In this document: piece after piece, positions 8,293 through 54,522 of the stretch
How positions within the stretch are numbered: the first letter of the stretch is position 1
Layout of the letters: each line of letters begins with the position of its first letter
IMG/VR virus record: IMGVR_UViG_3300025326_000025
Source: a virus
Strand: one strand, 5' to 3'
Length of the DNA stretch: 64,000 nt
Notes under the pieces: model-generated
Database searches by the model: none
The model's input: the letters and a program-made list of their open reading frames with translations, nothing else
Told to the model about the DNA's origin: nothing
Translations under genes and position numbers: made by a program

Positions 8293-11200
8293 CTACTCCT
8301 CCTCCCCCGACATGCTTCGACGCAGGAATGTGAGTCGTTCGAACAGCACGAACGTCTGACCGACGATCTGCTCCGCCGTGACAGCGTCCGTGGCGTTGAT
8401 GAGGTCCGAGAGGATCACGAAGAACAGTCGACCCGCCAGGACGCTGTCCCCCACGCCAACCGCGTCGGAGAGCTGCCGATACAGGATCGCGGACCGGGAC
8501 ACATCGTCCGACACGCTGGCCGAGTCCGACAGAGACCGGAGGATCTGTAAGAACATGATGAGATCGTCCGTCACGGCCAGCGTGTCGGAGAGGGCGCGCG
8601 TGTGCGAGAACGCGGCGAGGGTATGGAGGACGTCCGTTACCACGATGTCATCGGACAGGGGTCTCGTCCCGAGGAAGACACGGTGAAGGTCATCCGATGT
8701 GGCGATGGCATCCGCCAGGAGACGCCCGAAGATGATCTGGAAGGGCCCCGGAGAATCCGTCGCGGCGATGGCATCGGACAGGAATCGCTGGAACAGGAAT
8801 CCCGCCAATATGCCCGGCTCTCCGACGGCGACGGAATCGGAGAGGGCGCGGATGAGATTCGCGATCCGAAGCGGCGAATCGACGACCGGGATGTCATCGG
8901 AGAGCTGCCGGAGATACTGGACGATGGCCGGCGCGAGTTCGTCGGTAGACCCGATTGAGTCGGCCAGGAACCGCCAGAACAGGAGTCCGACGAACACGGT
9001 GTCCGTGACCGAGACGGTGTCCGACATCTGCTGCATGATGTTGAAGAAGTGCGTGAGTTCGTCCGCGACCGGCTGCGTGTCGGCGAGGAAACGCAGGAAG
9101 TCGATGGAGGGCGTCCCGGTCGCGTCCGTCACGGCAATGGAATCGGACGGAAAGGCGAAGAACGACAGGAACCGTAGGATATCGTCCGCCGTGACCGCGA
9201 TGGAATCGGAGAGGATCCGATCTGTGATCCATGCCCGGAGGAGTTCGTCCGTGACGATGATCGAATCGGACGGTGTCCTGAACCAATCCATGATTCTTAG
9301 GATATCGTCCAGAAGGGCGACCGAATCGGAAAGCAGACGACTAAACACATTCCCTCCCGCGCCCGCTGGGTGTACCGCTACGACTGTGGCCGTCCAATCG
9401 TCCGATACGGAGATCGTCCATGATCCGGGATTTTCGGATGCGGCGTTGAGAGTTCTTTGTGCTGCGGCGACGCGGCAGTTCGTCGCGGTGAGACCGGCCG
9501 TGCCGGAATCGGCGCCGAGTGGACTCGAATAGTCCGTCGGGTTCCCCGCCGGGGGAGATGTCTGTTCGCCCTCCCAACCCCCCATCCACAGCCAGAGGTA
9601 GCTTTTCGCGCCGCCCGTTGGCGAAAGCGATCCCGGATTCGGGGCCGCGTCCGTTCCGGTGACGAGCGTGGCGAACTCTGGCGCTTGCGTGGACGGGTTC
9701 TCCGCGCCGCTGATGCGGTAGGCGATGGAGGCGAACTTCGAACTCGTCTGCGTAATTGTGATGGTCGCTCCCTCTGTTCCGTCGGCTTGCCTGTACCAAA
9801 GGGAGATGCGGTCGTTCGATCCATCGGAGTCGTCGTTGAAGAGGTTCGTCCATCCCCCTCCGCTGACGGCATGCGACGTCGTATTGCTGGCGCTTCGATG
9901 AAGGACGAGGAGGAGGTCTCCGGAGACGATTCCACTCGGCAGATTCACCGCGGCATTCGCCGTGGCCGTAGTCCCGTTCGTCGTCGCGGTTGTCTCTACG
10001 ACGGGCGCGCCGCTCAGGACCGCCAAGATGCCAAGATCCTCTACGTCCACGGAGTCCGATAGGTTCCGGAGTGATTCGAGAACGCGTGCGATCGAATCGG
10101 TCACGCTCTGCTCGTCGGACAGCGCCCGAAGTAAGGACAGGGAGGAGACGACAGAATCTGTCGTCGAGACCGAGTCGGACATGTCCCGAAGGGTGTTCCA
10201 GGCGCGCAGGAGGTCGTCCGTGACGACAATCGAGTCGGATTGCGCGCGCTCGGCGATCCATGTCCGGATCATCTCGTCCGTGACCGTCACGGAATCCGAG
10301 GCGTCCCGGAGGAACGCAAGGAGAGCGACCACATCGTCCGTCACGCTCGCCGAGTCCGACAGGGACCGGTCGAATGTGGTACCCCCGGCATTATCCGTGA
10401 AGGCGAGCCAGCCATAGTAATCCTGAGTCCCAGAGTTAAGCCATGTGAGTGTAAACCCATCAGAGTTCAGTCCGGTCAAATCGGCCTCATTGTCTTCTAC
10501 GGGGGTTGGACCGCCGGCCATGAGTTCCAATACCCTGTCCGTGGCATGCAATCTATCTACCACAGTTGGAAGGACCGCGTCTCTCCCAACAATACCAGCA
10601 TATCCTTCTTGTGTGCCATCTGTAGATGTGCCGGCACCAATGCCAAACTCTTGATGGTCCACGATAGAATTTGGGGCGGTGGTTGCAGCGTTAGTCGCAA
10701 ACAGAACGCCTTTGGGCTGGAAAGAAAGACCCGTTAAGGTGTCTGTGGTCCCCGCGGGTTTTTGTCTGGTTCCCGCGTCCCATCGACCTCCCTTCAGACA
10801 AAGGAACATGGCCGTGTAGGAAGTGGTGGGCGCATCGAGAATGCCGAGGGTGAAGCCGTCTGTATCGAAGGTATCGAGATCAAGGAGGGAATCCTGAGCA
10901 CCATTGACAGCGAAACTATGTAATAGGCCATCCGTCCGGAGGACCTTTTGCCAGTCCATCTGGGCTGTCATATTTGCGCCATCGTCAGCGCAAATGCTGG
11001 CGAGCCAAAATTTCGTATTAGAGACGGCGACACCATAGGAGAGCTTTAAATGTGCAGAAAAACTACCGGATGTTGTACTGGGTGTAGCGGCAATGGCGAT
11101 TATCACATCTGGCTGGAACCCGACACCGGTCTTTTGGGTCGATGTTCCAGTAGTGGGGATGGCATGGCTCACGACGTTTGCATCTGTCAGGTCTGCCCCG

Positions 11201-12919: not shown

Positions 12920-13897
12920 TCACACCTCCACGAACGAGATCGTCGCGCGGACGCTCAGCGTGTCCGTAGGCTGGAGCGTCACGGGCGAGAACGTCGCGCG
13001 GTTCAGTCCTGGCTGTCCGGCGACGGAGGACCCTGCGATACCGAGAGCCATCTCGCTGACGGTCGCCGACAGGCCCGTGTGGCTCGAGGAGGCCACGTAC
13101 CGTCCTGGTGTCCCGGAAGGTTGGAAGGCGTTGGTGACGAAATGCTTCTCGAAGTAGCTCACGGTGACCCGTCCGGTCGTCACGGCGCCGTAGCCGTCCT
13201 CGTTGTTCCCCGAACTCGTGATTGCGACGGTCATCGACGCACGTAGGTCTGCGAGCTGACCGAAGTCAATGTTTCCCGTCAAGATTGCGAGGCTCGTGAT
13301 CTCGTAGGGCGTCGTATCGGAGACGCTGAACACATCGACCGTCTGCGGTCCCGTTGCCACACCGGGAATATAGAGACGGTGGCTCCACGACCCCGCGACG
13401 AACCCAACCCCGGAAACCTTCTGAGCGACGACATTGTAATTCGCGGAGACGGTCTTGAGGACATGGAACGTCGATCCGGGCGGATCGCTAGTGTGGTATA
13501 GGTCCGTCAGGACCTCCGCGGGCGGCTCGAACCCGGAGATGGTCGAGTAGAGATATGTCGCCGTGTTCGCGTCGTTCAGGCGGGCCGCGTGCGTCGCGCC
13601 GGACCCGGCCGTCCGCAGGTTCGCCTGGATGTCCGAGCTGAAGGTCAGCGTGGTGGTCTTGTTGACCACGATCGGGGACTTGACGCCCCCGTCTCCCGCG
13701 GCGGGCGCGGAACTGTCAGATCCCAGCCACGTGATGCCGAAGGGCAGTCCGCTCAGCGTGAGGACGCTCCGGAGCTTGTCGTTGATGATCTGCTTCCCGA
13801 CGGTCATCGCGAGGTTCCGGATGTCCCGGACCTCTTGCATGTGGCCGCTACCGTCGTAGCGTTCGATGTGGACATCTCCGCGCAGGGAAACTGGCAT
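12920..13897 (-). CDS. Tail-collar/fibre-base-like protein, paralog 2 (with ~180-aa insertion)
   Basis: Same N- and C-terminal motifs (RNLAMTVG..., SSSHTG..., FSPVTLQPTDTL) split by an insert. Confidence 0.6.
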   Translation of the reverse strand: MPVSLRGDVHIERYDGSGHMQEVRDIRNLAMTVGKQIINDKLRSVLTLSGLPFGITWLGSDSSAPAAGDGGVKSPIVVNKTTTLTFSSDIQANLRTAGSGATHAARLNDANTATYLYSTISGFEPPAEVLTDLYHTSDPPGSTFHVLKTVSANYNVVAQKVSGVGFVAGSWSHRLYIPGVATGPQTVDVFSVSDTTPYEITSLAILTGNIDFGQLADLRASMTVAITSSGNNEDGYGAVTTGRVTVSYFEKHFVTNAFQPSGTPGRYVASSSHTGLSATVSEMALGIAGSSVAGQPGLNRATFSPVTLQPTDTLSVRATISFVEV

Positions 13898-13911
13898 CTC
13901 CGCTCAACTCT

Positions 13912-17438: not shown

Positions 17439-20125
17439 GCCGGTATCTCCCGAAGGACACGCCCACCGTCAAGGCCCGCCGAGATGTAGATGAACTCAGA
17501 CGGTTCCGTCTCGGAGACGACGTGTGCGGATGCGATTCCCTCCGAAATCGTAATTCCGTCGGACAGACCCCGTACGAACGCGCCGGTCCCAAAGGCGAGG
17601 TATGCGATGATGTCGGCGGTGGCGTCGTTCGTCGTCCACCTGACGGTGAAGCCGTCCGTATCGTAGGATTTCATGTCCCCCGCGGCGAGCACGGACGGGG
17701 TGGATCCGTGGACCGCTGTAATGACGGCCTTCGTCATCGTGTCGTATTGGTCGACCTGCGTCGGCAAGACGGCGTCTCCACCGACCCCGGCGGACGCTCC
17801 CTCTTGGCTCCCGTCCTTCGAGGACGCGGCCCCGATCGCGAAGTTCTCATGCGCCTGAATCGAGTTCGACGATGTCTGATGGGTGTTCGCGAACAGGACC
17901 GCGCTCGGACTGAACCCGATGCCCGTGAAGGCGTCGTCGAGAGGTGCGGCCTCCGTCGCTTTCGCTTGGGTTCCTGCTTTGTATCTCCCGCCCTTCAGCA
18001 GGAGCATGACCCCAATCGTGCTCGCCGTCGCAGGCGCGTCGTTGATGGTCAGCGTCAATCCGTCCGAATCGAAGGAGGCGAGGCTCCAGTTCGCATCTTG
18101 CGCGCCGCCCGTCGTGAACGAGTACATACAGGCGTCCGTACGGAGGATCTTGTTCCAATCCATCGCTCCCGTCGTGGTGACGGCATCGTCGGCGCAGACG
18201 GCCACGCACCATTGGCTCGAGGCAGACGAGGCAGCTCCGAACGACATCGTCATGTGGTCGTTCTGGCCGCTTGCGACATGTGCCGTGTTGGCGTAGAGAA
18301 ACAGCGCGCAATCCGGTCGGAAGCCAGCGCCCGTGATGATCTGATCTGTGCCCGACGTGTTCATCGTCGGAAGGAGGACGATTGCGTCCTCCGCATCGGT
18401 CCCTCCGATGGCGAGCCAGAACAAACGTTCCGTCGCCAGCGCGACGTTGTAGGAGAGGGTGAACCCGTCCGCGTCCATGCTGTCCAGTTGAACGTTATTC
18501 GTGCCGTTCCACCATACCGATTCGTTGCGCGTCGAGTGCATCGTGTTCGTAGTCGACACGTTATCGTCGTTGCGCCACGCAATGCACCCCTGCTGGACGC
18601 TGGCCCCGCGTTTCGTCGCGAACCCGATGGATTCCCGCGTGCTCGCGACCCAGACGTTCCCGTTCGCCAGACCGCGGGATCTCCAGAATATGACCGCCTT
18701 CGGCTGGAAGTCCAGACCCGTGATGTCGTGGAAACCGATGTTGTTGTACTGGTTATCCCGCAGCACGACGGAGCCGTGCTTGACGCGGAGGCTCGGAGGC
18801 GCCGCCTGCCCGCCGTCCCCGATTGCGACATAGGTGACGTACCGCTGGGCGGTGCCGGGTGGGACGAACGGCCCATTCGGACTCGGGACAATCTGCTCCA
18901 CCGTGAATCCGTCGTCGTTCGTAGACGTCCACACGACTTCCTCCTCGATTCCGCCGGCCGTTGGTGGACCTCCCGGAGGCCATTCGGGGTCGATGGAGGC
19001 CCAGCAGCTCGTCGTCTTCGTCGTCGTGGCCGCCGCCATCGGGACCGTGCCGCCATCCGTCTCGTAGTCGAGATTTGCGATCCCCTGGGTGCCGTCCTCA
19101 TCGAAACCTCCGAGGTTAATCCCATAATCGTAGTCCGCGGGTTCCTCGTCGAGTTCGCCAAGGGACGAGTTCGTCGAGAGGAAGGCGACACCGCGCGGCC
19201 TGAAGCCCATGGAGACCGACAGGAGGCTCGGACTGTCCGTCTCGGATGCGACCCCGGGAAGATTGAGTGACCCCACGCGGCCCGAGAACGTGCCCCCGAG
19301 GATTAGCCCCAGGAAGCGCACGGAGGAGGTCGTGACCTTCGTGTGGTTGAGCGTGAACCCATCCGAGTCCCATGATATGAAGTCGGCCTTGTTGTCGCTG
19401 ATGAGATCGGCCTGCGCGCTCCCGTGCTTCGCCGACAGTAGGCATGACGATAGGGTGCTGAAATTCGCGCGGAGCTGCTGGACGTTCGTATTGTCGTTCG
19501 CGCAACAGGCCCACGCCCAGCGTCTCGATGTCGACTCGGCGGACCCCATTCCGAACGACGCGCCCGTCGCGGATCCCGTAGCGGTTTGATTCGTGTTCAG
19601 GAAAATGCCAATCTTCCCTTGGAAGCCCACTCCCGTGTAGGAACGGTTCCCCGTCGCGGTAGGACCGGTGAATCCACCGACGAACGCACCCGATACATCG
19701 CTCCCGCCGATGAAGGTGTAGTGGATGATGATGGCACTCGCCCCGCCGGGATTCTCCGTCCAGTTGACCGTGAACTTGCCGGCGTTACCTCCCGTCCCGA
19801 AGGAATCGAAGTCCGCAACGCTCTCCTGTGTAGGCGTGGAGTCTGAGAACACCTCGATGACGCGATCCGTGAAGTATCCCTTCCCGACGTTCGCCGGATC
19901 GACGCCGTTCTGGACGACATTCGAGATGCAGCCGCGCTGCGAGGGCGACGCCGCGACGCCAACTCCGAGGACCTTGTGGCCGCTCGACTCATCGAATCCG
20001 GACGTTGTCTGATTCGTCCAGAACAGGATGACGGCCTTACCGACGACTCCGCTGCCCGTGTCGATGGTCTGCGTTCCTGTGCCGGCGGGTCGCGTAAAGG
20101 TTCCCTTGACCCACGTCACAGCCAT
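17435..20125 (-). CDS. Adhesin-like protein: two GFQP three-repeat domains plus terminal LSD unit (896 aa)
   Basis: Six repeats; ends RGLSDGITISE...FIYISAGLDGGRVLR. Confidence 0.7.
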   Translation of the reverse strand: MAVTWVKGTFTRPAGTGTQTIDTGSGVVGKAVILFWTNQTTSGFDESSGHKVLGVGVAASPSQRGCISNVVQNGVDPANVGKGYFTDRVIEVFSDSTPTQESVADFDSFGTGGNAGKFTVNWTENPGGASAIIIHYTFIGGSDVSGAFVGGFTGPTATGNRSYTGVGFQGKIGIFLNTNQTATGSATGASFGMGSAESTSRRWAWACCANDNTNVQQLRANFSTLSSCLLSAKHGSAQADLISDNKADFISWDSDGFTLNHTKVTTSSVRFLGLILGGTFSGRVGSLNLPGVASETDSPSLLSVSMGFRPRGVAFLSTNSSLGELDEEPADYDYGINLGGFDEDGTQGIANLDYETDGGTVPMAAATTTKTTSCWASIDPEWPPGGPPTAGGIEEEVVWTSTNDDGFTVEQIVPSPNGPFVPPGTAQRYVTYVAIGDGGQAAPPSLRVKHGSVVLRDNQYNNIGFHDITGLDFQPKAVIFWRSRGLANGNVWVASTRESIGFATKRGASVQQGCIAWRNDDNVSTTNTMHSTRNESVWWNGTNNVQLDSMDADGFTLSYNVALATERLFWLAIGGTDAEDAIVLLPTMNTSGTDQIITGAGFRPDCALFLYANTAHVASGQNDHMTMSFGAASSASSQWCVAVCADDAVTTTGAMDWNKILRTDACMYSFTTGGAQDANWSLASFDSDGLTLTINDAPATASTIGVMLLLKGGRYKAGTQAKATEAAPLDDAFTGIGFSPSAVLFANTHQTSSNSIQAHENFAIGAASSKDGSQEGASAGVGGDAVLPTQVDQYDTMTKAVITAVHGSTPSVLAAGDMKSYDTDGFTVRWTTNDATADIIAYLAFGTGAFVRGLSDGITISEGIASAHVVSETEPSEFIYISAGLDGGRVLREIPA

Positions 20126-20149
20126 CTACGGCATCTCCGCTCGAAGAGA

Positions 20150-20306: not shown

Positions 20307-20316
20307 TGGTTGATGG
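20307..20316 (-). promoter_or_regulatory. CCANNAACCA motif sharing its CCA with tRNA-Asn
   Basis: CCATCAACCA, 33 nt before ATG 20274. Confidence 0.6.
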
Positions 20317-21184: not shown

Positions 21185-22015
21185 CTATTTGAAGTTCATG
21201 TCGTGGTTCGTGGCTGCGCGCTGTTTCGCATACAGGACGAACGGGTCCGGATCGCGGATCATTCGGTAGCCGAGATTGGCGGCCGCGCTGTTCACGCGGG
21301 CGTCGCGTTCCGCCTGCGCCGTCCGCCACGGGCCGTGACCCCCCGCGCCATCCAGCTCGAGGATGACCGCGAGATCGCGGACGGTCCCGTCACGCACACC
21401 GGGAACGCCTTCAACGACCTGCTGGAACCGGAAGCCGAGGCGCGTCGCCGGGTCCGAGATGACATGGGCGAGCCATACCCTCTCGTTGGACGTCGGGCGG
21501 CGGGCGAGCGAGGCTGCGAGCTTGCGATGGAACGCGGGGTCTTTGTGCCGTTCCTTCATCGAACGGCTCACGCCGTCGTGGCGGGACCGGATAAAGACGG
21601 GATTGGCGTTGTGGACCTTCATCCGGTCGCTGGCGGCCTTGTCCCACGATGGGTCAAATCGGAGCCGCGTCATCGTTCTGCGTGATCTTTGTTTGGCTGC
21701 CGCCGCGAACGCAGGGTTCTTGTGTAATCGTTTCATTCGACGACTCGATGCCTCGCGTCTTTTCTTCACGAAGTCGGGATCCGCGTTCAGTCTGTTTATC
21801 GTTCGCCGGGCCGATTCGGACTGTATCATGCGTCTTCGCGGATCTTCGCTCCAAGCCTCCGACATGGATCGACCGATTCCCGCCTTCTTGACCCATTTGT
21901 ACACGGCGCTCAATGACACGCCGACGGAATCGGACACCGATTCTAGACTCTTTCCGGACGCGTAGAGTTCGAGCGCTCTGTTTCTTATTCCGTCTGAGTA
22001 GGCACGGCGTGTCAT
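21185..22015 (-). CDS. Free-standing homing-endonuclease-like protein (HTH + basic NUMOD-like repeats + DUF559/Vsr-like nuclease)
   Basis: N-terminal HTH (ALELYASG.SLESVS..VGVS..AVYKWV); repeated S..MK..H.DP.F units; C-terminal PTSNE...FRFQ...D.AVILELDG..H...RD. Confidence 0.7.
   Translation of the reverse strand: MTRRAYSDGIRNRALELYASGKSLESVSDSVGVSLSAVYKWVKKAGIGRSMSEAWSEDPRRRMIQSESARRTINRLNADPDFVKKRREASSRRMKRLHKNPAFAAAAKQRSRRTMTRLRFDPSWDKAASDRMKVHNANPVFIRSRHDGVSRSMKERHKDPAFHRKLAASLARRPTSNERVWLAHVISDPATRLGFRFQQVVEGVPGVRDGTVRDLAVILELDGAGGHGPWRTAQAERDARVNSAAANLGYRMIRDPDPFVLYAKQRAATNHDMNFK
21204..21213 (-). promoter_or_regulatory. CCANNAACCA motif
   Basis: CCACGAACCA upstream of 21161 and the tRNA array. 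Confidence 0.6.
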
Positions 22016-22576: not shown

Positions 22577-24763
22577 TCACAGGCCGAACCGCGCCAGTTC
22601 CTTGCTGATGTCGTCCCTCGAGGCGTCGTAGAAGTTGAAGTTCAATGTACCGCCGTGCATCCCGCCGGAGATTGTCGTCCCGGCGGCAACGGCTCCGGCG
22701 CCCCCCATCCCCAAGCGGAACCCGAGGATCCCACGGTTCTCCTCGGCCGTGAGGACGCGTTCGCCGCGATGGAGCATGAACGCCCCCGTCTCGGTCACGA
22801 AATCCGTGCCCATCTGCAACGACCGATTCTCGCTCGATGTGAGCAAAGCGCGGAAAGCATCCGGGAAGGCCGACAAATTATGCAAACCCGATAGAAGTGC
22901 ATCGAAGCTCCTTCTCGAGTCTAGGTTGGCGAGGACATCCATGAGTTCACGGTTCTCCTCGGCCGTGAGGACGCGTTCGCCGAGGTGCAGGCGATACATC
23001 CCGGTCTCCTCGACGAAGGGCGTGCCCTCTTGGAAGCTCTTTCCGGCGGTGGCAGCGATGTATGTCCCGACACCAGCGAGAGCGGCAGCCATGATGGCGA
23101 TGGCTGGGATTGTGCCCACGAATAGGGTCCGGCCCGATATCTCCGCGAGGGCCACGGCGAATTGCGCGGCTGCGAGGCCCCACGCGGCCGCTGTCAGGAC
23201 CGAATAGAGGGCCGCCTGTTCCTTGCTCGTCGCGCTCATCGCGGCCATCATCAAGGCTACGCCGCTGACGGCCGCGCCGACGCCGACCATCGCGGCACGC
23301 ATGGCGACCGCGCGCCGGTTCAGGGTGTTGAACCAGTTGTCGACGTCGCCCATCGTAGGTACGAGCTGCGTCGCCATCATCAGTCGGAGTTTTCCGAACG
23401 CCGCGACCATATCCAGGATCGTCTTAATCGGCAGGATCCTGTTGAACAGGGCGAACAGGATGATCATGTTCTGGACCGGCTGTGGGAGAGAGAGGAACGC
23501 CTTCACGAGTCCGAGGAATACCTGCGAAAAGGCGTTCCACACGGGGAGCATGTTCACGACGATGCGCAGGAGACCTTGGAGGAGTTCCAAGAGTTGCGGG
23601 AGGTTCGCCGCGAAGTCCCGGATGACGGTCACGAGGATCTCCCGGAACACCGGCGCCGACGCCGTGATGATGTCCTTGAGTTCCGTGAGTACATCCGAAA
23701 GGGCCTCAACGACTTCCGGTGTTCGGATGCCCCCCACGAAGGTCTGAACGACCTGCTGCCATTGCGACTGTAGCGTGTCCGCCGTCTCTCCCGCAACCTC
23801 CGCGAGTGCTCCCTGAGAGTTCGTGATTGCGTCGATGGACCCGGGTAGGCGGTCGGCGTTGAGGAGAAGGAACGCGAGGGCACGTGCGCCCCTACGCTCC
23901 ATGAAGCCGAAGAACTCCGCGAGCTGATCGACGTCGATCGAGACATCAAGACGGTCAAACGCCTCTACGAGCGCCAACAGGTTCAGGCGTCCGTCCTCGA
24001 TGATGTTCACGCCGAGGCCGAGGGAGTCGGCCCATGCCTGTGCCTGGTCCGCGTTCTGGATGAGGCTCACGATCATCTGGTCGATGCCACGCGCCGAGAT
24101 CCCGGCCTGCTGCCCGGCGTTCACGAGCTGCACCATGAGGGCCAAGAACTCCTCCATGGTTCCGCCCGCGAGCTGAATCGTCCCCGCGGCGAATCCGAAG
24201 GCCCGGCCGAAGTCCTCGACGTCCAAGAGCGAGATGTTCGCCGCCACCTGGAGCTTGTCGAACACCTCGACGGCCGTGAGACCCTGTGCGGCGAACGCGG
24301 TCGTCGCGACGACGTATGCCCGGGCGGCCGTCTCCCACGAGATCCCGTTCGCCAGGACAGCTTGCGTGGCGACGTCGATGATGTCGATGATCTCGCGGCC
24401 TGTGAGGCCGGCCTTGGCGAGGATGAGTGCACCCTGCGCAATCTCGTCTCCGGCGACGCCCCACGACGCAGCCGCGACGTTGATGGCGTCGTTCAGCTCC
24501 CACATCTGAGTTTCCGTCAAGCCCCCGATGACGGCCGTCTGGCGCAGGGCGAACTCGTAGTTGCGGAGGGCCCCGATGGCGATTCCGACGACGGCCGCCT
24601 GCCCGGCGAAGGCGATGCCCCCCGCGATCGCGACCCGCCGGGCGGTGTCTCCGATGCCTCCGGTGATCGTCGCCATGGACGCACGCCATTGGGCCTGGAA
24701 CCGCGCGAGTTCGGCCTCCGCTTGGGAAGCGTCCGCCGTGATGAAGATATCCGCCTCGGCCAT
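22577..24763 (-). CDS. Tape measure protein (TP901-type core, 728 aa)
   Basis: A-S-W-G-V..E.A.G...LAKAG, LQVAAN.S..D...G, AGQQAG...RG motifs; Ala-rich helical; TM-like central part. Confidence 0.9.
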   Translation of the reverse strand: MAEADIFITADASQAEAELARFQAQWRASMATITGGIGDTARRVAIAGGIAFAGQAAVVGIAIGALRNYEFALRQTAVIGGLTETQMWELNDAINVAAASWGVAGDEIAQGALILAKAGLTGREIIDIIDVATQAVLANGISWETAARAYVVATTAFAAQGLTAVEVFDKLQVAANISLLDVEDFGRAFGFAAGTIQLAGGTMEEFLALMVQLVNAGQQAGISARGIDQMIVSLIQNADQAQAWADSLGLGVNIIEDGRLNLLALVEAFDRLDVSIDVDQLAEFFGFMERRGARALAFLLLNADRLPGSIDAITNSQGALAEVAGETADTLQSQWQQVVQTFVGGIRTPEVVEALSDVLTELKDIITASAPVFREILVTVIRDFAANLPQLLELLQGLLRIVVNMLPVWNAFSQVFLGLVKAFLSLPQPVQNMIILFALFNRILPIKTILDMVAAFGKLRLMMATQLVPTMGDVDNWFNTLNRRAVAMRAAMVGVGAAVSGVALMMAAMSATSKEQAALYSVLTAAAWGLAAAQFAVALAEISGRTLFVGTIPAIAIMAAALAGVGTYIAATAGKSFQEGTPFVEETGMYRLHLGERVLTAEENRELMDVLANLDSRRSFDALLSGLHNLSAFPDAFRALLTSSENRSLQMGTDFVTETGAFMLHRGERVLTAEENRGILGFRLGMGGAGAVAAGTTISGGMHGGTLNFNFYDASRDDISKELARFGL
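22732..22982. repeat. 35-bp exact direct repeat inside the tape measure C-terminus
   Basis: CACGGTTCTCCTCGGCCGTGAGGACGCGTTCGCCG at 22732-22766 and 22948-22982 (encodes GERVLTAEENR twice). Confidence 0.9.
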
Positions 24764-28938: not shown

Positions 28939-28956
28939 ACGGGTTTCCTCGGACGG

Positions 28957-28966
28957 TGGTTCGTGG
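28957..28966 (-). promoter_or_regulatory. CCANNAACCA motif
   Basis: CCACGAACCA, 19 nt before the holin-like ATG. Confidence 0.65.
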
Positions 28967-29401
28967 TTACCAACCCGCCTCGTCCTTATATTTACACCTA
29001 TCCACGAGCGGGACCGAGAAAGACCAATAGAACAGAGCCGCGGCGAAGATGAAACGAAGGATGGCGATTCCATCGGTCGGGTTGAACGGGAGGTATTCAG
29101 CGGCGATTGCGAGGACCTGCGCGACGCCGACAGCGGCGATAGCGACCTTTAGGCGGACGTCGACGTACATCCTGCCCTTCGTATGAAACATGACGATGAA
29201 TGCGAACAGGACGGACGCCAGGGCGAGGAGGAAGGACGCGACGATGTGCGGCGGACTTCCGACGAACGGTCGACCGACGATTGCTCCCAGGACGGCGATG
29301 AGAAGGTAATTCGTGCGGAGTCCGTTCTCGTACATCGCAATCATCAAGTCGCGTTGCGAGAACTTCTTCGGGGGAAGCCTCTTGCCTGGACCCAGCATCA
29401 T
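28967..29401 (-). CDS. Multi-TM membrane protein
   Basis: About four hydrophobic helices; start at 29401 or 29413. Confidence 0.65.
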   Translation of the reverse strand: MMLGPGKRLPPKKFSQRDLMIAMYENGLRTNYLLIAVLGAIVGRPFVGSPPHIVASFLLALASVLFAFIVMFHTKGRMYVDVRLKVAIAAVGVAQVLAIAAEYLPFNPTDGIAILRFIFAAALFYWSFSVPLVDRCKYKDEAGW

Positions 29402-36042: not shown

Positions 36043-37068
36043 TCAGATCCCGTCCACGAGCAGGAGCGCCTTCGGCGTCTTGAGGGCCGTCACGCGCTCG
36101 CTCCACGCCTGGTACACGGTCACGTGATCCTCGTCGCGCGTGTACTGGTTCGTGTTGAACGGTCCCGCGCGCCCGAACTGCGGGTCGAACGACTCGTAGA
36201 TCGTCGCGGCCTTTGCGCTCCGGTCGAATCCGAGGGCCTTGTTCGACTGCACGACGCCGGCCGAGTTCATGAACGAGAAGTCCACCGGGGTCAGGGTCAC
36301 TCCGAAGATGACCGGCACGGCGACGCCGGGCACGAACGGGGACTGCTGCCAGACGGTGTTCGTCTTGTTGATGAGCCGCTCGGCGACGTAGGTGTGTTCC
36401 TCGACGTCGACGAACAAGTCCGTGAGCCGGTACGGGTAGCGCGCGCCGTCGGAGTTCGTCTGCTTCGCGACGACGAGCTTCATCCGCAGGATGTCCTTAA
36501 TCGGGTCGGACGCCGTCTGATCCCACGCGTTCGCGGACGCCTGGTTGATCTCCAGGAACTTGCGTTTCTTCTCGTACCCGACGCCCGACGCGGTCGCACT
36601 CGGGTAGAGGTTCTGGAGGCCCGCGTCCGCGTCGATCGCGGCGGTCCCGACGGCCCAGTCGTTCGTCACATCGGCCGCGGTCTTGTTGTTCACGTACTCC
36701 GCGAGCCATGCGGCGAAGAGTTGCTGTCCGCGAACGACCTCGTCGATGTCCTTCGTGTACCGACGGACATCCGGGCCGTACTCGATCGCCATGCCGAACC
36801 CGGTCAGGGTCGCATACTTGCGGTCGAGGCGGGTCTGAATCTTGACGGTCGCGAACTCTCCTTCCGACGTCCGCGGGGCCGGGAATGCCTTGTCCGGGTG
36901 CGTGTACGCGGTGAACTTGTCGGCGAAGTAGGCCACCGTCGGGGCGTCCGCCGCGACGTGCGGGAACATGCCCTCGAAGATGAGTCGTGGTCCGACGAGT
37001 TCGCGCAGCTCGGCATCCTGGAACTCCTTCCGCAGGAGGTCGTGGACGGTCAGTATGATGTCAGGCAT
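36043..37068 (-). CDS. Major capsid protein (HK97 fold, probable)
   Basis: 341 aa downstream of protease-scaffold and decoration genes; EGEF.TV, G.AIEY, DPI.DI....L, C-terminal P.AL..V.G. Confidence 0.85.
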   Translation of the reverse strand: MPDIILTVHDLLRKEFQDAELRELVGPRLIFEGMFPHVAADAPTVAYFADKFTAYTHPDKAFPAPRTSEGEFATVKIQTRLDRKYATLTGFGMAIEYGPDVRRYTKDIDEVVRGQQLFAAWLAEYVNNKTAADVTNDWAVGTAAIDADAGLQNLYPSATASGVGYEKKRKFLEINQASANAWDQTASDPIKDILRMKLVVAKQTNSDGARYPYRLTDLFVDVEEHTYVAERLINKTNTVWQQSPFVPGVAVPVIFGVTLTPVDFSFMNSAGVVQSNKALGFDRSAKAATIYESFDPQFGRAGPFNTNQYTRDEDHVTVYQAWSERVTALKTPKALLLVDGI

Positions 37069-37073
37069 TCAAA

Positions 37074-37625
37074 TCACCCCACAATGAGGACGGCGTGTAG
37101 ACCCGCCGCACTCGAACTGTCGAGCAGCATCCCGTATGGCCGAGCCGGGCCAATGGAGTCCGTCGCCGGGACGGACGTGGTCGTCCAGTCCGAACCCGTG
37201 TTGCTGAATCCGACGAGGGTGCCTGCCACGACGGCCTCGCGCACCTTGACGCGCCGGATGACCTTGCCGGTGAGCCACTCGACCGTGGCCTTCCGCATGT
37301 CGTCTCGGCTGGAGAGGGTGATGGGTGCCGTGGACGTCGGATCGATGCCCTGCGGGAATCCGAGAGGTTCCTCGATGACGCGCCCGACGGGCTTCTGGTC
37401 CGAGTGGGGCCGCGCGAAGATTGTGAGGTTCCCCTGGGACGACGCGGTCCATGGCTGGACGTAGTCGCCCGCGGCAATCTTGAGGGAGTACGTGCCGTAC
37501 GGCCCGAACTTCTCGCCGGACGGTCCCGTGACCGCCGAGATGGGCGTGAAGACACCTTCGTAGAGGGCGCCGGACTGCTGCAGGCCCTTTCCGATGTCTG
37601 CCGGGTTCGTGATGACGGATGGCAT
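37074..37625 (-). CDS. Capsid decoration/cement protein (probable)
   Basis: Between scaffold and capsid; KIAAGDYV, AVVAGTLV...G..L pattern. Confidence 0.65.
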   Translation of the reverse strand: MPSVITNPADIGKGLQQSGALYEGVFTPISAVTGPSGEKFGPYGTYSLKIAAGDYVQPWTASSQGNLTIFARPHSDQKPVGRVIEEPLGFPQGIDPTSTAPITLSSRDDMRKATVEWLTGKVIRRVKVREAVVAGTLVGFSNTGSDWTTTSVPATDSIGPARPYGMLLDSSSAAGLHAVLIVG

Positions 37626-37642: not shown

Positions 37643-39556
37643 CTAGGCGGGCTTGTTCTCCAGCGGTCCCATCCCCAAGAGCGCGGCCTTGTACGCCTTC
37701 AGGGCCGCAATCTGTTCGGGTGTGAGATCGGGTTCGTCGGACCCCGCGACGAAACGTGCGAGGTTGACCTCTCCGGACGCGGCCGGGATGATGAGGTCGT
37801 CGCGAGGCTTCGTGGCCTGTGCGCCGGAGTGGGATGTCTTCCCGCTCTTGACGCCAGACGCGATGACCCGGAGTTGCTCCAGGGAGAACTGCTCGAACTC
37901 CTTGACATCCACGTCCATTTTCTTGAGCGCCAAGAGTTCGGAGTAGCGTTCCTGCTTGAGGCGGTCCTCGCGGAACTTCGCGAGATCGTCACGTTCCTTC
38001 TGCGCGGCCTCGAGTTGCGCCCGCAGCGCCACGATCGTCTGTTCATCGGACATGAGAGTCCCTTCGGACGGTGGTTTCTGGTTTCCCGCCAGAAGGGCCG
38101 CCTTCTCCGCCTCGAGGGCGTCGAGTTTGGCCTTCATTTCGGCGATGACCGTCGCGTTGTCTTCTGTCATATTTGCCTCGGACGGTGGTTCGTGGTTTCC
38201 GTCGGGCGATGGCATGACGGTCCATTCCCATCCCGTCCCGCTCCCGTCGGACGGGATGCTGATGAACGAACTGTCGGCGGCGATCGTTGCGGAGGTGTTC
38301 CCCGGAGTACCGCTTGTCGACGCGAAGATGATGTTTCCTGTGGCGGTGTTGGTCGCGCCGACGGACTTCGCCTCGGATGGCTTCTCCTTCGAGTAGGACA
38401 TCGTCGTGTACCAGGACAACCCGCCTTTCTTTCCGCTCGCGTTGAATCCGGCGGACTCGATGTCGACGTCGTGCGCCCGAAGGCACGCAGTCGCCTCCTC
38501 GAGGTGCACGCGGAGGCATCCTTCCAGACCCCCCTCCATGTCTCCGTGGTAGGCGGCCTCGGCACCCGATACCTCGACCCCGTGCTTCTTCGCCCGTCGA
38601 ACGAGGCATGCGTGGATCTTCGCCTTCGCCGCGGGGCCGAAGTTCGAGTTCTTAAGACGTGCGAGGCCGTTCCGGGCATGCGCCGCGTCGTGCGCGGGGA
38701 AGCTCCGACCGGGTCCGCAGAAGGCCGAATCCGGCAGGGCGTTCCGCGTCTTTGCCGTCAACTTGGCACCCAAGGCGACACCGGATGCCTCGAGTCCGGA
38801 ATCCCAGTATGGGCCTTCCTGTCGCCAGAGTTCCGCGGCGAAGTCGTCGTCGTCCAGCTCGTATTCAATCGTTCCGCCGCAGCAGCCCTCATCCTCGTCT
38901 GGATTGTCCATAATCTCACCCATTTTGTAGCCGACAACATAACAGTTGTCAGGAGAACAGGCAGGCACGGACGGGGTCACGACGAACGTGTTCCCCATGC
39001 CGATCGCGTCGACAATCTCTGTCCCGGAGAGTTCCTTCACGACCGCCTCGACGGACGTGAACACATCGGGCATGAGGCGGTCGAGGATGGCCTTCATGTT
39101 CGATTCAATCTTGATGCGGAGGACGAGTTCGTCCTTCAGGTCGTTGTCGATGTCGGACACGGTCGCTGCGACGACGGTTCCGTCGAGTTCGGTGTCGTGA
39201 TAATGGTTGATTCCTACCTTCGTCCCGACCCACGTCCCGGCGATCTTCCGGAGTGTCCCGGGGCGCCATGTGACCATGATGACATCGCCGTCGGCCATGC
39301 GCATGTAGACGGGCGAACCGTCCTCGGCCGCGACGACCGTGATGATGCCGTCGTTATCGGGATCCAGGACGAAGTCTCCGAAGTCCTCCCCGACGACCGC
39401 GTTCTCTCCGGACGTGCCGACGACGCGCGAATAGCAAATGGCTACCTTCTGGGCCTTCGTGTACGGCTTTCCGGTGCGCTTGTTCTTCCCGGTGACCTGT
39501 TCCGTGCACCGGTCCATCTTACCCCAGAGGTTCTTGGGCACGTTCGAGTACGGCAT
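37643..39556 (-). CDS. Prohead protease-scaffold fusion (ChaB-like N-terminus, protease, DUF6582-like insert, coiled-coil scaffold)
   Basis: MPY..VP..LW...AICY start; VGINH and FTSVE protease-like motifs; L....RNALPDSAF.GP.RSFP.HD..HAR..LAR; C-terminal coiled coil. Confidence 0.8.
   Translation of the reverse strand: MPYSNVPKNLWGKMDRCTEQVTGKNKRTGKPYTKAQKVAICYSRVVGTSGENAVVGEDFGDFVLDPDNDGIITVVAAEDGSPVYMRMADGDVIMVTWRPGTLRKIAGTWVGTKVGINHYHDTELDGTVVAATVSDIDNDLKDELVLRIKIESNMKAILDRLMPDVFTSVEAVVKELSGTEIVDAIGMGNTFVVTPSVPACSPDNCYVVGYKMGEIMDNPDEDEGCCGGTIEYELDDDDFAAELWRQEGPYWDSGLEASGVALGAKLTAKTRNALPDSAFCGPGRSFPAHDAAHARNGLARLKNSNFGPAAKAKIHACLVRRAKKHGVEVSGAEAAYHGDMEGGLEGCLRVHLEEATACLRAHDVDIESAGFNASGKKGGLSWYTTMSYSKEKPSEAKSVGATNTATGNIIFASTSGTPGNTSATIAADSSFISIPSDGSGTGWEWTVMPSPDGNHEPPSEANMTEDNATVIAEMKAKLDALEAEKAALLAGNQKPPSEGTLMSDEQTIVALRAQLEAAQKERDDLAKFREDRLKQERYSELLALKKMDVDVKEFEQFSLEQLRVIASGVKSGKTSHSGAQATKPRDDLIIPAASGEVNLARFVAGSDEPDLTPEQIAALKAYKAALLGMGPLENKPA
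38072..38081 (-). promoter_or_regulatory. CCANNAACCA motif, intragenic
   Basis: CCAGAAACCA, 19 nt before in-frame ATG 38053. Confidence 0.68.
38186..38195 (-). promoter_or_regulatory. CCANNAACCA motif, intragenic
   Basis: CCACGAACCA, 16 nt before in-frame ATG 38170. Confidence 0.68.
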
Positions 39557-39578
39557 ACGGTCGGACGATGGTTGCGGG

Positions 39579-39995
39579 TTACGTCACTCCAGTCGGCGGT
39601 TCGGTCGGGAGCCACATGGCGTCCCGGCGCTGCGCGGACGGTCGCCTCTTGATGACGTACTCGTAGGCCGCGTCCATCGTCGGCAGGACGCCAGTATTGA
39701 ATAGATACCACGCCATCGTCAGAGGCGATCGTTCGACGCCGGCACCGCAATGCACGAGGACCTCCTCGCCAATGGCGACGAGACCGTGGATGACGGTCAT
39801 CGCCAAGTCGAGCTGCCCGAGGTCGGCGCGGACCTCTCCACCCTCGTTCCGTAGAATGGGGATGTGTATCGTCCCCGGACGATCCGCGTGGTACGGAGAG
39901 CACATCTCGAGGACGCAGATCCGGATGACCTCGGGCGGGGCCTTCGCGGCGTCCTCCATGCTCCCGAGATAGAGTCCTGGCAGAATCTCGTCCAC
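39579..39995 (-). CDS. Dual-specificity (Cx5R) phosphatase
   Basis: EILPGLYLGS and VHCGAGVERS P-loop. Confidence 0.92.
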   Translation of the reverse strand: MDEILPGLYLGSMEDAAKAPPEVIRICVLEMCSPYHADRPGTIHIPILRNEGGEVRADLGQLDLAMTVIHGLVAIGEEVLVHCGAGVERSPLTMAWYLFNTGVLPTMDAAYEYVIKRRPSAQRRDAMWLPTEPPTGVT

Positions 39996-45313: not shown

Positions 45314-45544
45314 TCATTCCTGACCCTCCCCGAATCTCGGAATCCTTCCCTCCGGGTACGAATCCGGAGCAATCAGTTCCACACGGAATCGTTCGACGCG
45401 CCGCCTCCACCACCATCCGTGTCCGCTTTTCAGGAATGTCACCCAGTAGAGACAGTCCTCGTGGTAGTGCGCGCCTCTCCATTCACACCACGAATATCCA
45501 AGGATGTCTTCGTTGCAGTACACACATCTCCGAATCTCTACCAT
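45314..45544 (-). CDS. Small Zn-finger protein (76 aa)
   Basis: CVYC...HYHEDC; overlaps the terminase stop. Confidence 0.6.
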   Translation of the reverse strand: MVEIRRCVYCNEDILGYSWCEWRGAHYHEDCLYWVTFLKSGHGWWWRRRVERFRVELIAPDSYPEGRIPRFGEGQE

Positions 45545-47190
45545 CCAGCCACCTCCATCGACGCGCGCGTCTTCGGTCTCGCGCGGATGAACAGGGAGAG
45601 CATGGCCGAGGCTACGGCAAGGTCCTTGAATCCGTTCTTTGGCTGGCGGAGGACCGTCAGGCCGTTCTTCGTCGTCTCGGCTTGGAGCTGATTGTGCTGC
45701 ATGATCCAGTCCGACAGGAACGGCTCCTGTTCCGGGACGTGGATCATGCGATTCACGAGGGCGACCTTGTGGTTCTTGTGCATGAAATCGTTCGATACGT
45801 CGGACCCGCGGAACCCGTAGCGGTCCTCCTCCGCGTTCTCGTCCTTCCAGAGGCGAGCCTTCGGGATCGCGTTCTCGCCCTTCGTGAGCATCTCGATGAA
45901 GACGTCTTGCTGGGACGTCGCGTCGCAGATGAGGGTATGCCCGCGCAGGATCGCGAAGACGAGCTTGACGTATTCCACTTGGGCGGTGTATTCGACGCCC
46001 GTCGGGTATATCCGTCTCCAGAACAGATAGTACAGGTGGCCGCCACGGATCTCGCCCGCGAGGATCTCCGTGCGGTCGTGCGCCTTCGCCCAGTCCACCG
46101 CCATGACGACGTGGAGATTGGGACCCGGCGGAACCGGCATCTTGCTGTCGCCCGGATACACCGTGGACCCGCGTATGAAGTGCAACGGCACCTGCGGCGG
46201 TCGGTCCACGCACGCGTTCATGATCCCGCGGTCGTAGAACCGCCCGGACCTCGGCGGGAACGTCGCGTTGAGGTACATGTCGATCTCGTCGGGCGTCATC
46301 CCGCGCATGTCCCGCCGGATGTCCCTCTCTCGGAGGATGCCTTCATCCACGGCGGTCTTCCAGTCGATCGTGAACGTCGCGAGTACACGCTTCGCTCCGC
46401 ACTTCCGACATATCGTATCGTCCGGCGCGTACGGGTTCCCGCAGTCCTCGCATTGGTTCCATTCCTCCCATGTTAGGTCGAACTCTGGATTCGTCCGCAA
46501 GTCAGGCGTACCGATTCCGATGAAGTCCTTGCGGCTGAACGTGTCCCAGAGATACGGGTTGATGACGCCGGCCCAGATGGAACGCGGGGTCTCCTGAACC
46601 TCGTCGATAATCACGCCGTCTCCCATCTCCCCGAGATTCCATCGCCCTTCGGACGAAACGCCGATTGACCGGTTCTCGATCTCGGAGCCGTTCCCGAGAC
46701 GAATCCGCGTCGCCGTGTTCATCGTGTTCGAAAAGGGTTCGATGTAGTGCCCTTTGAACCACGGCATGTCGACGTACTTCCGGATCATCCGGAACATATA
46801 GTCTTGTCCGTGCGTCGGGACGAACACGATCTTCCGGGCGTTGTCCTTCCTGACAGCCCGGTGGAGCGTCTTGGCCGACACGAACGTGGTCTTTCCGACC
46901 TTCCGAGCGCAGAGACCGAGTGCTCGTTCCACGTCGTCGATGCGACGGTCGACGCGCACCTGCCACGGACTCAGCACGACCGGGTCGCCAGATGTGTTGT
47001 CGCAGGACACGGCCGTCCACGCTGGGAAGTCCTCGATGAGCCATCCATACAGTTCGTCCTCGTCGGAGGCTTTGATAACGTAGTCGAGAACGCGCTTGTA
47101 GATGTCGTAGCGACAGCGGAACAGCGGCTCCGTCGGACTCCGCTTTACCATCTCACGAATTGCCCCGATCCTCTTTTCGCTGAGAAGCAT
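45538..47190 (-). CDS. terL: Terminase large subunit
   Basis: Walker A ARKVGKTT, Walker B VIIDEVQE, GTP motif C, nuclease AVDWA..HD.T and KD...A; internal Zn ribbon CEDC...CRKC. Confidence 0.93.
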   Translation of the reverse strand: MLLSEKRIGAIREMVKRSPTEPLFRCRYDIYKRVLDYVIKASDEDELYGWLIEDFPAWTAVSCDNTSGDPVVLSPWQVRVDRRIDDVERALGLCARKVGKTTFVSAKTLHRAVRKDNARKIVFVPTHGQDYMFRMIRKYVDMPWFKGHYIEPFSNTMNTATRIRLGNGSEIENRSIGVSSEGRWNLGEMGDGVIIDEVQETPRSIWAGVINPYLWDTFSRKDFIGIGTPDLRTNPEFDLTWEEWNQCEDCGNPYAPDDTICRKCGAKRVLATFTIDWKTAVDEGILRERDIRRDMRGMTPDEIDMYLNATFPPRSGRFYDRGIMNACVDRPPQVPLHFIRGSTVYPGDSKMPVPPGPNLHVVMAVDWAKAHDRTEILAGEIRGGHLYYLFWRRIYPTGVEYTAQVEYVKLVFAILRGHTLICDATSQQDVFIEMLTKGENAIPKARLWKDENAEEDRYGFRGSDVSNDFMHKNHKVALVNRMIHVPEQEPFLSDWIMQHNQLQAETTKNGLTVLRQPKNGFKDLAVASAMLSLFIRARPKTRASMEVAGW

Positions 47191-47740
47191 CCTCAGCCAC
47201 CTCCACGGGTTCGACGTCCAGCACGGGGACGTCGATGATTGTCGCCTTCTCCTCCTTCTTCTTCGTCTCGAACTCGATGCGCAACGTGCCCTCATCCTTC
47301 GACGCCTCGAGTGCGAACGACTTCAATCGGTCGAAGAAATCGGACTTCGTGCGCGTCGCGCGGACGGACTGCATCGCGTCCAGGATCGTCTTGCGGTAGC
47401 GCATGATGGCGTCCACGGTCCGCGGGTCAAGCTTGTTCGGGTCTATCGTCTTCGTCGCGTTGTCCCACCGTTCGACGAACCATGCGATGATTGCCATCTG
47501 GACGTACTCCGTCCGGGTCCATGCGCCATCCGTGTCGGCGACGAGTTCCTCGACAATCGTCTGAATCTGCGACCGCTGTTCGTTCGTGAGGGTCGCGAGG
47601 AACAGATGCTTGTCCTTCATCTTGTCGAACTGCTTGATCGCGGACGCGACGACCGGTAGCGTCGCATTCTTCTTGCGGTACTCGCGTTGGTACGCACGCA
47701 TGTCCGCTGTCTTCTTCGGAGGCTTCACATCGTCGGGCAT
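47153..47740 (-). CDS. Terminase small subunit (probable)
   Basis: Basic N-terminus and helical body, directly upstream of terL. Confidence 0.55.
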   Translation of the reverse strand: MPDDVKPPKKTADMRAYQREYRKKNATLPVVASAIKQFDKMKDKHLFLATLTNEQRSQIQTIVEELVADTDGAWTRTEYVQMAIIAWFVERWDNATKTIDPNKLDPRTVDAIMRYRKTILDAMQSVRATRTKSDFFDRLKSFALEASKDEGTLRIEFETKKKEEKATIIDVPVLDVEPVEVAEDASQRKEDRGNS

Positions 47741-53790: not shown

Positions 53791-54522
53791 CTACCCCTCG
53801 TTCTCGATCCTCGGAGCTAGGATGTACGTCCCGGAGATGGCTTGCGCGCCTTCCCCGAACGAGAAGTCCGCGTACACGGGGTAGTCCTGACCAACGCGAA
53901 TTGTGAGGCGCGTCCCGTCGGGGAGAGCGTTCGCGAAGGCCGATACGTAGTCGATGGGAAGAAGGGTGCGGACGGCGGTCTTCGTCTCGACGCCGTAGAC
54001 GTGATGCTCCACGGTGTCCGCGTCGCCCTCCGCCTCGAACACGACATCCGGCGGATTCGTCCGGATGGCGATGCAATCCGACACGAGACTGGACGCCTTG
54101 ATGGCGATCCGTATCTCGTCCGGGCTCACCTGGAACGTCTCGGGGAGCTTCACGTTCGGGACCTTCGGATCGGGGAAGGCCTTGTTGTCGATGACGCCCA
54201 TCTTCCGACGCGTGTTCCCCACCTTGGCTTGTATGCGCCCGTCCACGATTTCGGCCTCGAAGGAACCGTCCCCCTGCAATGACAGGACCTCGGACATCTT
54301 GTCGAGGTCCAAGCCAATCTCCTCCTTGTCAAGGGCCGAATACGTGTCGAAGGAGGCCCGCGGGATCGCCATGTCGATGAGACACACATGCGCCGGGTCC
54401 ACGACACGGATGCGCGCGCCGTCTGGGTCGAACGTGAACTTCGCCTCGTCGACCGCGCACGAGAGTATCTTCACGACGGACGCGAGGCGTTTCCGGTCAA
54501 TCTTGAACTTCATATCGATCAC
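53791..54522 (-). CDS. pcn: PCNA sliding clamp
   Basis: VDEAKF....G.....VDP.HV.LI, EIG.DL..., G..YP, YILAPRIE C-terminus. Confidence 0.96.
   Translation of the reverse strand: MIDMKFKIDRKRLASVVKILSCAVDEAKFTFDPDGARIRVVDPAHVCLIDMAIPRASFDTYSALDKEEIGLDLDKMSEVLSLQGDGSFEAEIVDGRIQAKVGNTRRKMGVIDNKAFPDPKVPNVKLPETFQVSPDEIRIAIKASSLVSDCIAIRTNPPDVVFEAEGDADTVEHHVYGVETKTAVRTLLPIDYVSAFANALPDGTRLTIRVGQDYPVYADFSFGEGAQAISGTYILAPRIENEG

Follow-up and report, generated by a model that had tools for sequence, protein, structure and literature searches.

This analysis concerns a 637-amino-acid (aa) open reading frame (ORF) in a 64,000-nucleotide (nt) stretch of viral DNA, IMG/VR record IMGVR_UViG_3300025326_000025, the whole of which is referred to below as the window. 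The ORF encodes a predicted prohead protease followed by a helical, scaffold-like C-terminus and contains two in-frame ATG codons, M463 and M502, each preceded by a short motif that also stands before other late genes of the same virus. We consider it probable that this is a nested protease/scaffold gene of the kind represented by lambda C/Nu3 and by gp17/gp17.5 of HFTV1. Judged from the sequence, it is quite likely that at least one of the internal starts is used, and the use of both has at best an even chance. We infer that the short products are made, that they would be in excess over the full-length form and that the underlying mechanism would operate at the RNA level.

Two motif-flagged ATGs within the 637-aa ORF

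The 20-mer AACCA(C/G)(G/A)AACCACCGTCCGA occurs twice inside the ORF, at 38197-38178 and 38083-38064, and ends 7 and 10 nt before the two ATGs, respectively. Both in-frame ATGs, the motif before each and the products of 175 and 136 aa had been pointed out in a first-pass annotation of this DNA, and all are borne out in the 637-aa ORF. The spacing of 16-19 nt given there is roughly correct; the exact 10-nt core, CCANNAACCA, ends 15 nt before M463 and 18 nt before M502. The two leaders share the composite form CCANNAACCA-ccgtccGA(G/A)G (Table 1). The upstream one (38197-38176) is identical over 22 nt to the leader of a 103-aa membrane ("holin-like") gene (28968-28947), so that the reported identity holds and only its length, given as 20 bp, needs correction. 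This second leader is truly intergenic, as had been stated, since it begins at the TAA of the preceding ORF and is then followed by an ATG at 28938.

The C-terminal 198 residues are predicted to contain two long helices (aa 460-491 and aa 504-546) and two shorter ones, and the linker between the long helices, GNQKPPSEGTL, is predicted to be disordered. The earlier remark that each ATG begins a coiled-coil segment can be kept in the sense that each lies at the N-terminal edge of one of the long predicted helices.

The gene's own start looks different in composition. Its core is imperfect (CCCGCAACCA in the window, CCTCCAACCA at 9981-10000 in the close relative L001), and GAC replaces GAGG. The protease gene of L001 is preceded by the same imperfect form, CCTCCAACCActgtccGAC, followed by 2 nt and the ATG, and only 2-4 nt separate the own-start motif from the ATG in the window virus and L001. 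The start of the full-length protease may be weak by design. Folding of the 100 nt around seven start sites gave z-scores of -1.0 to +1.2 and no structure common to the sites, which leaves a hairpin-based start mechanism unsupported.

The two internal starts are a tandem duplication of 38 codons that comprises the start region and the first helix, a point that the first-pass annotation had missed. The units are spaced 114 nt (38 codons) apart, the two leaders are nearly identical, and the helices 3' of the two Met residues are weakly similar (Smith-Waterman score 35 vs 21 +/- 4 for shuffled sequences, p ~0.007). L001 has both units, each nearer its ortholog than its paralog; the duplication is therefore older than the split between the window virus and L001, and both leaders have been retained since these viruses diverged. 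A single start suffices in the second close relative, L002, which has only the downstream one.

Conservation in relatives, which the first-pass annotation had named as a check, is found for M502 with its motif in both close viruses and for M463 in L001 only. These two relatives, the only close ones in the searched collections, are P0001 (locus L001, 59% identity) and P0002 (L002, 52%), both full-length. M502 is invariant in the three viruses, and the exact core is conserved at this site in L001 and L002. Both units of L001 carry an exact core and an ATG (M452 and M491), with GAGG before the first and GAGAG before the second; in L002 the first unit is absent and the second is kept, with CCAAGAACCA, GAGG and the ATG of M475. 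M502 is the conserved and probably ancestral candidate scaffold start. The proposal of two nested scaffold isoforms thus survives in part: both ATGs carry the late-gene start element and the M502 signal is conserved, but L002 has the downstream start alone. The further suggestion that two isoforms tune capsid size found no support and is speculation.

The codons of the motif give a second line of evidence. The core encodes the peptide N-(Q/H)-(K/E)-P. For the Pro, the five internal copies from the three viruses all use CCA, which makes up 11-15% of Pro codons. The residue before it is encoded by AAA where it is Lys (3-18% of Lys codons) and by GAA where it is Glu (25-34% of Glu codons). Gene-wide, codon identity at identical residues is 0.57, and the linker around the motif is otherwise variable, with many indels. 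Because these rare codons are kept amid an otherwise variable linker, the data point to selection on the nucleotides of the motif more than on the peptide.

Three distant relatives (L024, L025 and L026; GC content 44-52%) share the layout of protease, DUF6582 module and scaffold, at 23-26% identity over the C-terminal part. CCANNAACCA was not found at the internal-start place in any of the three. A single Met opens their helical part, with the sequences MSEN in L024 (M331), MAEN in L025 (M332) and MSDD in L026 (M305), and in each a Shine-Dalgarno (SD)-like 4-mer lies exactly 8 nt 5' of this Met. In alignment A3, the Met of L024 and that of L025 are one column off M502, and that of L026 lies further upstream, before an extra helix. 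An SD-like element is present at six of the eight candidate internal starts (M463, M452 of L001, M475 of L002 and the three distant ones). All eight read M-[S/T/A]; among internal Met residues the frequency of this pattern is 22%, and among annotated starts it is 45%.

A late-gene start element across the window

The minus strand has 14 exact copies of CCANNAACCA and the plus strand has none, against ~0.5 expected (200 shuffles gave at most 4 copies). A 13-mer of the motif has three exact copies and one with a single mismatch, the last directly 5' of the gene's own ATG; when up to two mismatches are allowed, 11 matches are found against 3.75 expected. One-mismatch copies of CCANNAACCA are at background, with 13 per strand, and carry no information except for those 5' of the starts at 39556, 59989 and 26611, which leaves the exact core as the informative form.

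Gene junctions, or their vicinity, account for 12 of the 14 exact copies. At eight junctions, seven of them with an exact copy and one with the one-mismatch copy of the 637-aa gene itself, the motif begins 0-7 nt past the upstream stop codon. Junction copies usually end 13-24 nt before the next ATG, and most copies are followed, ~6-7 nt past the core, by GAG(G), or in a few cases GAA, which mostly stands 5-8 nt before the ATG. Deep inside an ORF, copies occur only in the 637-aa gene, 439 and 553 nt from its stop, and both precede an in-frame ATG at the canonical distance. For comparison, an SD-like 4-mer is found 3-11 nt upstream of 31 of the 55 gene starts in the window and of 31 of the 264 internal in-frame ATGs. 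The motif based on CCANNAACCA is a real start-associated signal. In L001, further orthologous copies precede the ~440-aa gene, the protease gene (in the imperfect form) and one more gene.

The exact core is restricted to the morphogenesis block at 13.9-42.2 kb and to the coding strand. Early genes (starts 48298, 53089, 54722 and 61795, minus strand) carry TAAATAGTTGCC ~20 nt 5' of the start codon, and CCANNAACCA is absent from these genes. The position of TAAATAGTTGCC is consistent with archaeal TATA promoters that give leaderless or short-leader transcripts, and the TATA-like boxes at early genes, together with a PCNA gene, suggest that the host is archaeal.

The array of eight tRNAs has an exact copy on either side (20307-20316 and 21204-21213, minus strand), neither of them followed by a long ORF, and that at 20316 overlaps the CCA 3' end of tRNA-Asn. 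These copies hint at a possible second role, in which the motif marks boundaries of transcripts or of processing. In the tail region (13897-13911 and 20125-20149, minus strand), the motif is followed by GAGCGGAGATGCC in the leaders of a 325-aa gene and an 896-aa gene alike. Ahead of the 896-aa gene, the first ATG starts a mini-ORF of two codons (ATG CCG TAG), which immediately adjoins the real ATG.

Domain architecture and genome context

From its N-terminus, the 637-aa protein consists of a 47-aa module, a prohead-protease domain, a DUF6582/ChaB-like module, a variable linker and the helical, scaffold-like C-terminus. The label "protease", which had merely been assumed before, is now supported by a predicted fold, without a Pfam match. 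A model built with AlphaFold2 (AF2) from ten relatives has a predicted local distance difference test (pLDDT) score of mostly 70-88 over aa 64-195. In an exhaustive VIA-align search, its best structural match is T4 gp21 (5jbl_A; Z 10.7, root-mean-square deviation 3.0); the alignment covers 128 of 165 residues, and the matching part is residues 68-195 of the 637-aa protein. The proteases of varicella-zoster virus (Z 6.7) and human cytomegalovirus (Z 5.1) come next in the same search. Foldseek against predicted viral structures (BFVD) returned 42 matches at E<=1e-3, and many of these carry the name of a prohead or capsid maturation protease. Against the PDB, Foldseek run with the whole 460-aa model gave nothing significant and placed T4 gp21 only at rank 19, and a profile search of PDB sequences with the 637-aa protein gave coiled-coil noise and no real match. 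At E<=0.1, Pfam assigned no family to the 637-aa protein, and no prohead protease family (Peptidase_S78, S77, U35 and similar) to its close relatives either. H118 is invariant and S168 nearly invariant among relatives of 18-64% identity (alignment A2); a His followed by a Ser ~50 residues on is what we take to be the catalytic arrangement of the prohead-protease fold. The model supports the assignment of aa 64-195 as a prohead maturation protease with a predicted catalytic role.

The DUF6582/ChaB-like module gives the only PHROGs match in the protein, phrog_16160, and relatives match Pfam DUF6582 or ChaB. This segment is also the source of most of the listed best matches among the 688 matches in the representative library. 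It has a conserved LPDSAF and a buried His-Asp motif, and often occurs in proteins that also carry a head protease. The N-terminal 47-aa module likewise starts the head-module proteins of many unrelated uncultured viral contigs (loci L003-L023), and phrog_32268 matches the same N-terminal position in distant relatives. Scans of viral and metagenome collections for related loci recovered only this widespread module and added no close relatives. Three of these contigs, which are more distant (L005, at 3001-5031, and also L006 and L007), encode a 676-aa protein with the same N-terminal module, a DUF6582-like segment and further domains, and a 480-aa capsid-like gene follows it; such contigs may represent a second lineage of composite head proteins.

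Head-module order is conserved across the family: a ~440-aa gene, small genes, the 637-aa gene, a 157-183-aa gene and the gene for the major capsid protein (MCP). The predicted protease fold, the helical C-terminus and this conserved synteny make it the natural reading that the gene encodes a prohead protease fused to a scaffold-like C-terminus, two genes 5' of the MCP gene and with putative binding to MCP. Complex prediction for MCP with scaffold aa 502-637 scored 0.01 and is uninformative either way. Searches for a stand-alone scaffold, with aa 463-637 and with the C-terminal alignment, returned P0038 alone. This candidate was rejected as a gene-call artefact, being a 99%-identical fragment on an 826-bp contig that begins 31 nt before M463.

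The window itself is a high-GC (~62%) segment of a tailed-virus genome, with nearly all genes on the minus strand and eight tRNAs. By tblastn, its MCP matches an archaeal-virus "major head protein, HK97-like fold". A dual-specificity phosphatase gene (DSPc, E 2.5e-11; 39579-39995, minus strand) lies directly upstream of the protease-scaffold gene, and a DSPc gene is also next to the protease gene in L001 (9595-10077); it is an unusual neighbour for a head module.

Table 1. Positions of the protease-scaffold gene, its start elements and other features of the window.
Feature	Coordinates	Strand	Remarks
637-aa ORF, full-length gene	37643-39556	minus	
N-terminal module, aa 1-47, MPYSNVPK.LW.KMD.C	39416-39556	minus	
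Prohead (assemblin/HK97-type) protease domain, aa 64-195	38972-39367	minus	predicted fold
DUF6582/ChaB-like module, aa 262-332	38561-38773	minus	phrog_16160, E 1.5e-13 (aa 264-316)
Nested ORF 1, ATG 38170 (M463, MTEDNATVIAE), 175 aa	37643-38170	minus	opens predicted helix aa 460-491
Nested ORF 2, ATG 38053 (M502, MSDEQTIVAL), 136 aa	37643-38053	minus	opens predicted helix aa 504-546
Start-flagging element, upstream copy: core CCACGAACCA (38186-38195) followed by ccgtccGAGG	38176-38197	minus	
Start-flagging element, downstream copy: core CCAGAAACCA (38072-38081) followed by ccgtccGAAGGG	38064-38083	minus	
Degenerate motif copy AACCCGCAACCATCGTCCGA before the gene's own ATG, one mismatch	39561-39580	minus	ends 4 nt 5' of ATG
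Intergenic leader of 103-aa membrane ("holin-like") gene, same 22-mer	28947-28968	minus	
183-aa gene between scaffold and MCP	37074-37625	minus	strong SD AAGGAG; position conserved in relatives
Major capsid protein (HK97-like)	36043-37068	minus	strong SD GGGGTGA; phrog_1650, E 1.9e-6
Tape-measure protein	22577-24763		
Large terminase	45538-47295		
PCNA homologue	53791-54522	minus	PF00705, E 3e-7

Proposed mechanism, alternatives and known systems

We propose a mechanism in which the full-length protease-scaffold is initiated at the weak-looking site at 39556, with its imperfect motif and no GAGG, and ribosomes would also start within the reading frame, certainly no further upstream than M463 (38170), which is a probable site, and at M502 (38053). 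The products would be protease-free scaffolds of 136 and 175 aa that share the putative capsid-binding C-terminus. The internal starts would be chosen by a composite signal consisting of CCANNAACCA, ~6 nt, GAG(G), 5-8 nt and the ATG, the same signal as is found at cistron junctions ahead of about a dozen late genes. Most likely, it would serve as an extended ribosome-binding region of the polycistronic late mRNA. Such an RNA-level role is favoured because of the tight stop-start junctions, the SD-like spacing of GAG(G) and the lack of a consistent TATA-like box upstream. Weak initiation of the full-length protease combined with stronger initiation of the scaffolds would fit the defects of the gene's own start. 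Pairing of the core with the 3' tail of 16S ribosomal RNA (rRNA) was rejected by reasoning, since the core lies 5' of the SD and its partner would have to lie 3' of the anti-SD, past the point where the rRNA ends.

However, several observations weigh against this nested-translation mechanism. The limitation of the motif to late genes and the two tRNA-flanking copies with no ORF behind them fit a transcriptional or RNA-processing signal at least as well as ribosome binding. The conserved peptide GN(Q/H)(K/E)P could act at the protein level, for example as a cleavage site. The SD-like strings are only weak at M502 (GAAGGG) and at M491 of L001 (GAGAG), and P0099 and P0120, which lack the DUF6582 module, have no Met at the equivalent place. 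Absence of the first unit from L002 means that the second isoform is dispensable. Finally, the two copies in the window are duplicates of one origin and do not count as independent occurrences.

The strongest alternative, which we judge unlikely, places the nesting at the transcript level, as in herpesvirus UL26/UL26.5. In this view, CCANNAACCA-N6-GAG would serve late transcription as a promoter element or else mark a site of RNA processing, and separate 3'-coterminal mRNAs spanning scaffold, 183-aa gene and MCP would have their 5' ends, whether from initiation or from cleavage, within the protease ORF. Confinement of the motif to the coding strand of the morphogenesis block, with TAAATAGTTGCC at early genes instead, would suit such a role, yet no consistent TATA-like box is found within 50 nt 5' of the motif: an A/T run occurs at 3 of 15 sites, at differing distances. 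Under standard archaeal promoter geometry, a core that ends 13-24 nt before the ATG would, as a TATA substitute, place the transcript start at or beyond the ATG. The distance of GAG is fixed from the core and not from the ATG, as this alternative would have it; GAG(G) nonetheless falls 5-8 nt before most ATGs, in the manner of an SD. The ORF-less copies that flank the tRNA array also count in its favour, as does the boost that internal transcripts would give to the abundant downstream head proteins, but the position of the motif directly after the stop codon at eight junctions is typical of intercistronic translation signals.

It is less probable still, to the point of being improbable, that the gene yields a single full-length product whose scaffold is released or trimmed by the protease, the repeated GN(Q/H)(K/E)PPSE being a linker or cleavage site and the likeness to gene leaders irrelevant to expression. 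There is precedent in P2 gpO, which the HFTV1 preprint describes as a fused protease-scaffold without an internal start (bioRxiv 10.64898/2026.09.13.751334). The repeat does lie in disordered linkers, the usual place for cleavage sites, but rare synonymous codons are kept within it, and an identity of 22 nt with a non-coding leader is inexplicable at the protein level. The searches found no stand-alone scaffold homologue and the equivalent Met is lacking in P0099 and P0120, both as expected for a single product; against this, a Met with an SD-like element persists in lineages that share only 23-26% identity over the C-terminal part, and no other motif copies occur inside ORFs. That the repeat is a mere remnant of duplication, its resemblance to leaders due to chance or functionless gene conversion, is very improbable: the two window copies do have a common origin and are followed by weakly homologous helices (35 vs 21 +/- 4), but the leader is far better conserved than these helices, persists in L001 and L002, where protein identity is about 52-59%, and belongs to a set of 14 copies on one strand and 0 on the other, with ~0.5 expected.

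A bolder version of the nested-translation mechanism, which we regard as possible but rather doubtful, holds that CCANNAACCA-N6-GAG(G) is a dedicated late-gene initiation signal of an archaeal virus lineage. It would be read on RNA or DNA by a virus-encoded or virus-modified factor and would suffice for a new start to arise within an ORF, and its duplicated copies would yield two scaffold isoforms and set the protease-to-scaffold ratio. If true, this would be the first sequence-defined internal-start signal in an archaeal virus; the HFTV1 study sought one and found none.

Nested protease/scaffold genes are established in lambda (C/Nu3) and herpes simplex virus 1 (UL26/UL26.5), and likewise in Mu (I/Z); in capsid assembly they set a ratio of few proteases to many scaffolds. 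The nested scheme itself is therefore known, and what is new here is the tandem duplicated start with its lineage-specific sequence tag. The scheme is a trait common to tailed phages, herpesviruses and, since 2026, one archaeal virus. The present case would extend it to a second lineage of archaeal viruses, one whose sequence shows no detectable similarity to that of HFTV1, and would present duplication of a start region as a route to two isoforms.

As in lambda C/Nu3, a predicted N-terminal prohead protease and a putative C-terminal scaffold are in one frame just 5' of the capsid gene, the domain boundary has an internal ATG preceded by an SD-like element, and an excess of protease-free scaffold is expected. 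Unlike lambda C/Nu3, the 637-aa protein, which has no detectable sequence similarity to it, carries additional DUF6582/ChaB-like and 47-aa N-terminal modules, two tandem starts and the CCANNAACCA element; its host is probably archaeal. The herpesvirus UL26/UL26.5 and cytomegalovirus UL80 genes share the fusion of an assemblin-fold protease to a scaffold, a putative one in the present gene. Their nested products come from separate promoters and transcripts, whereas no canonical promoter is seen here, and host and gene context differ. More than one nested isoform has a precedent, since the cytomegalovirus UL80 family makes four nested, in-frame, 3'-coterminal products, as summarized from the original report in a later article (Welch et al. 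1991, J Virol 65:4091, cited in PMC4032930).

P2 gpO, a single product that undergoes autoproteolysis, also has protease and scaffold fused in one ORF; according to the HFTV1 preprint, it has no internal start (bioRxiv 10.64898/2026.09.13.751334). The conserved internal ATG and its signal favour the nested scheme in the present gene. A parallel among archaeal viruses is HFTV1, where Ribo-seq (ribosome profiling) with harringtonine and proteomics identified an in-frame internal scaffold start in the prohead protease gene, gp17/gp17.5 (bioRxiv 10.64898/2026.09.13.751334). A tblastn search of the phage collection with the 637-aa protein gave no HFTV1 match. Both are archaeal tailed viruses with an in-frame scaffold start inside a prohead protease gene, host and start being predicted in the present case. 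HFTV1 has one internal start, with no ribosome-binding motif or RNA structure upstream (bioRxiv 10.64898/2026.09.13.751334), whereas the candidate starts described here are marked by a defined motif and an SD-like element. Internal start choice would thereby be tied to a short, countable signal common to other late genes, and the question that HFTV1 left open, how an internal start is chosen in an archaeal virus, becomes testable by simple reporter and mutational experiments.

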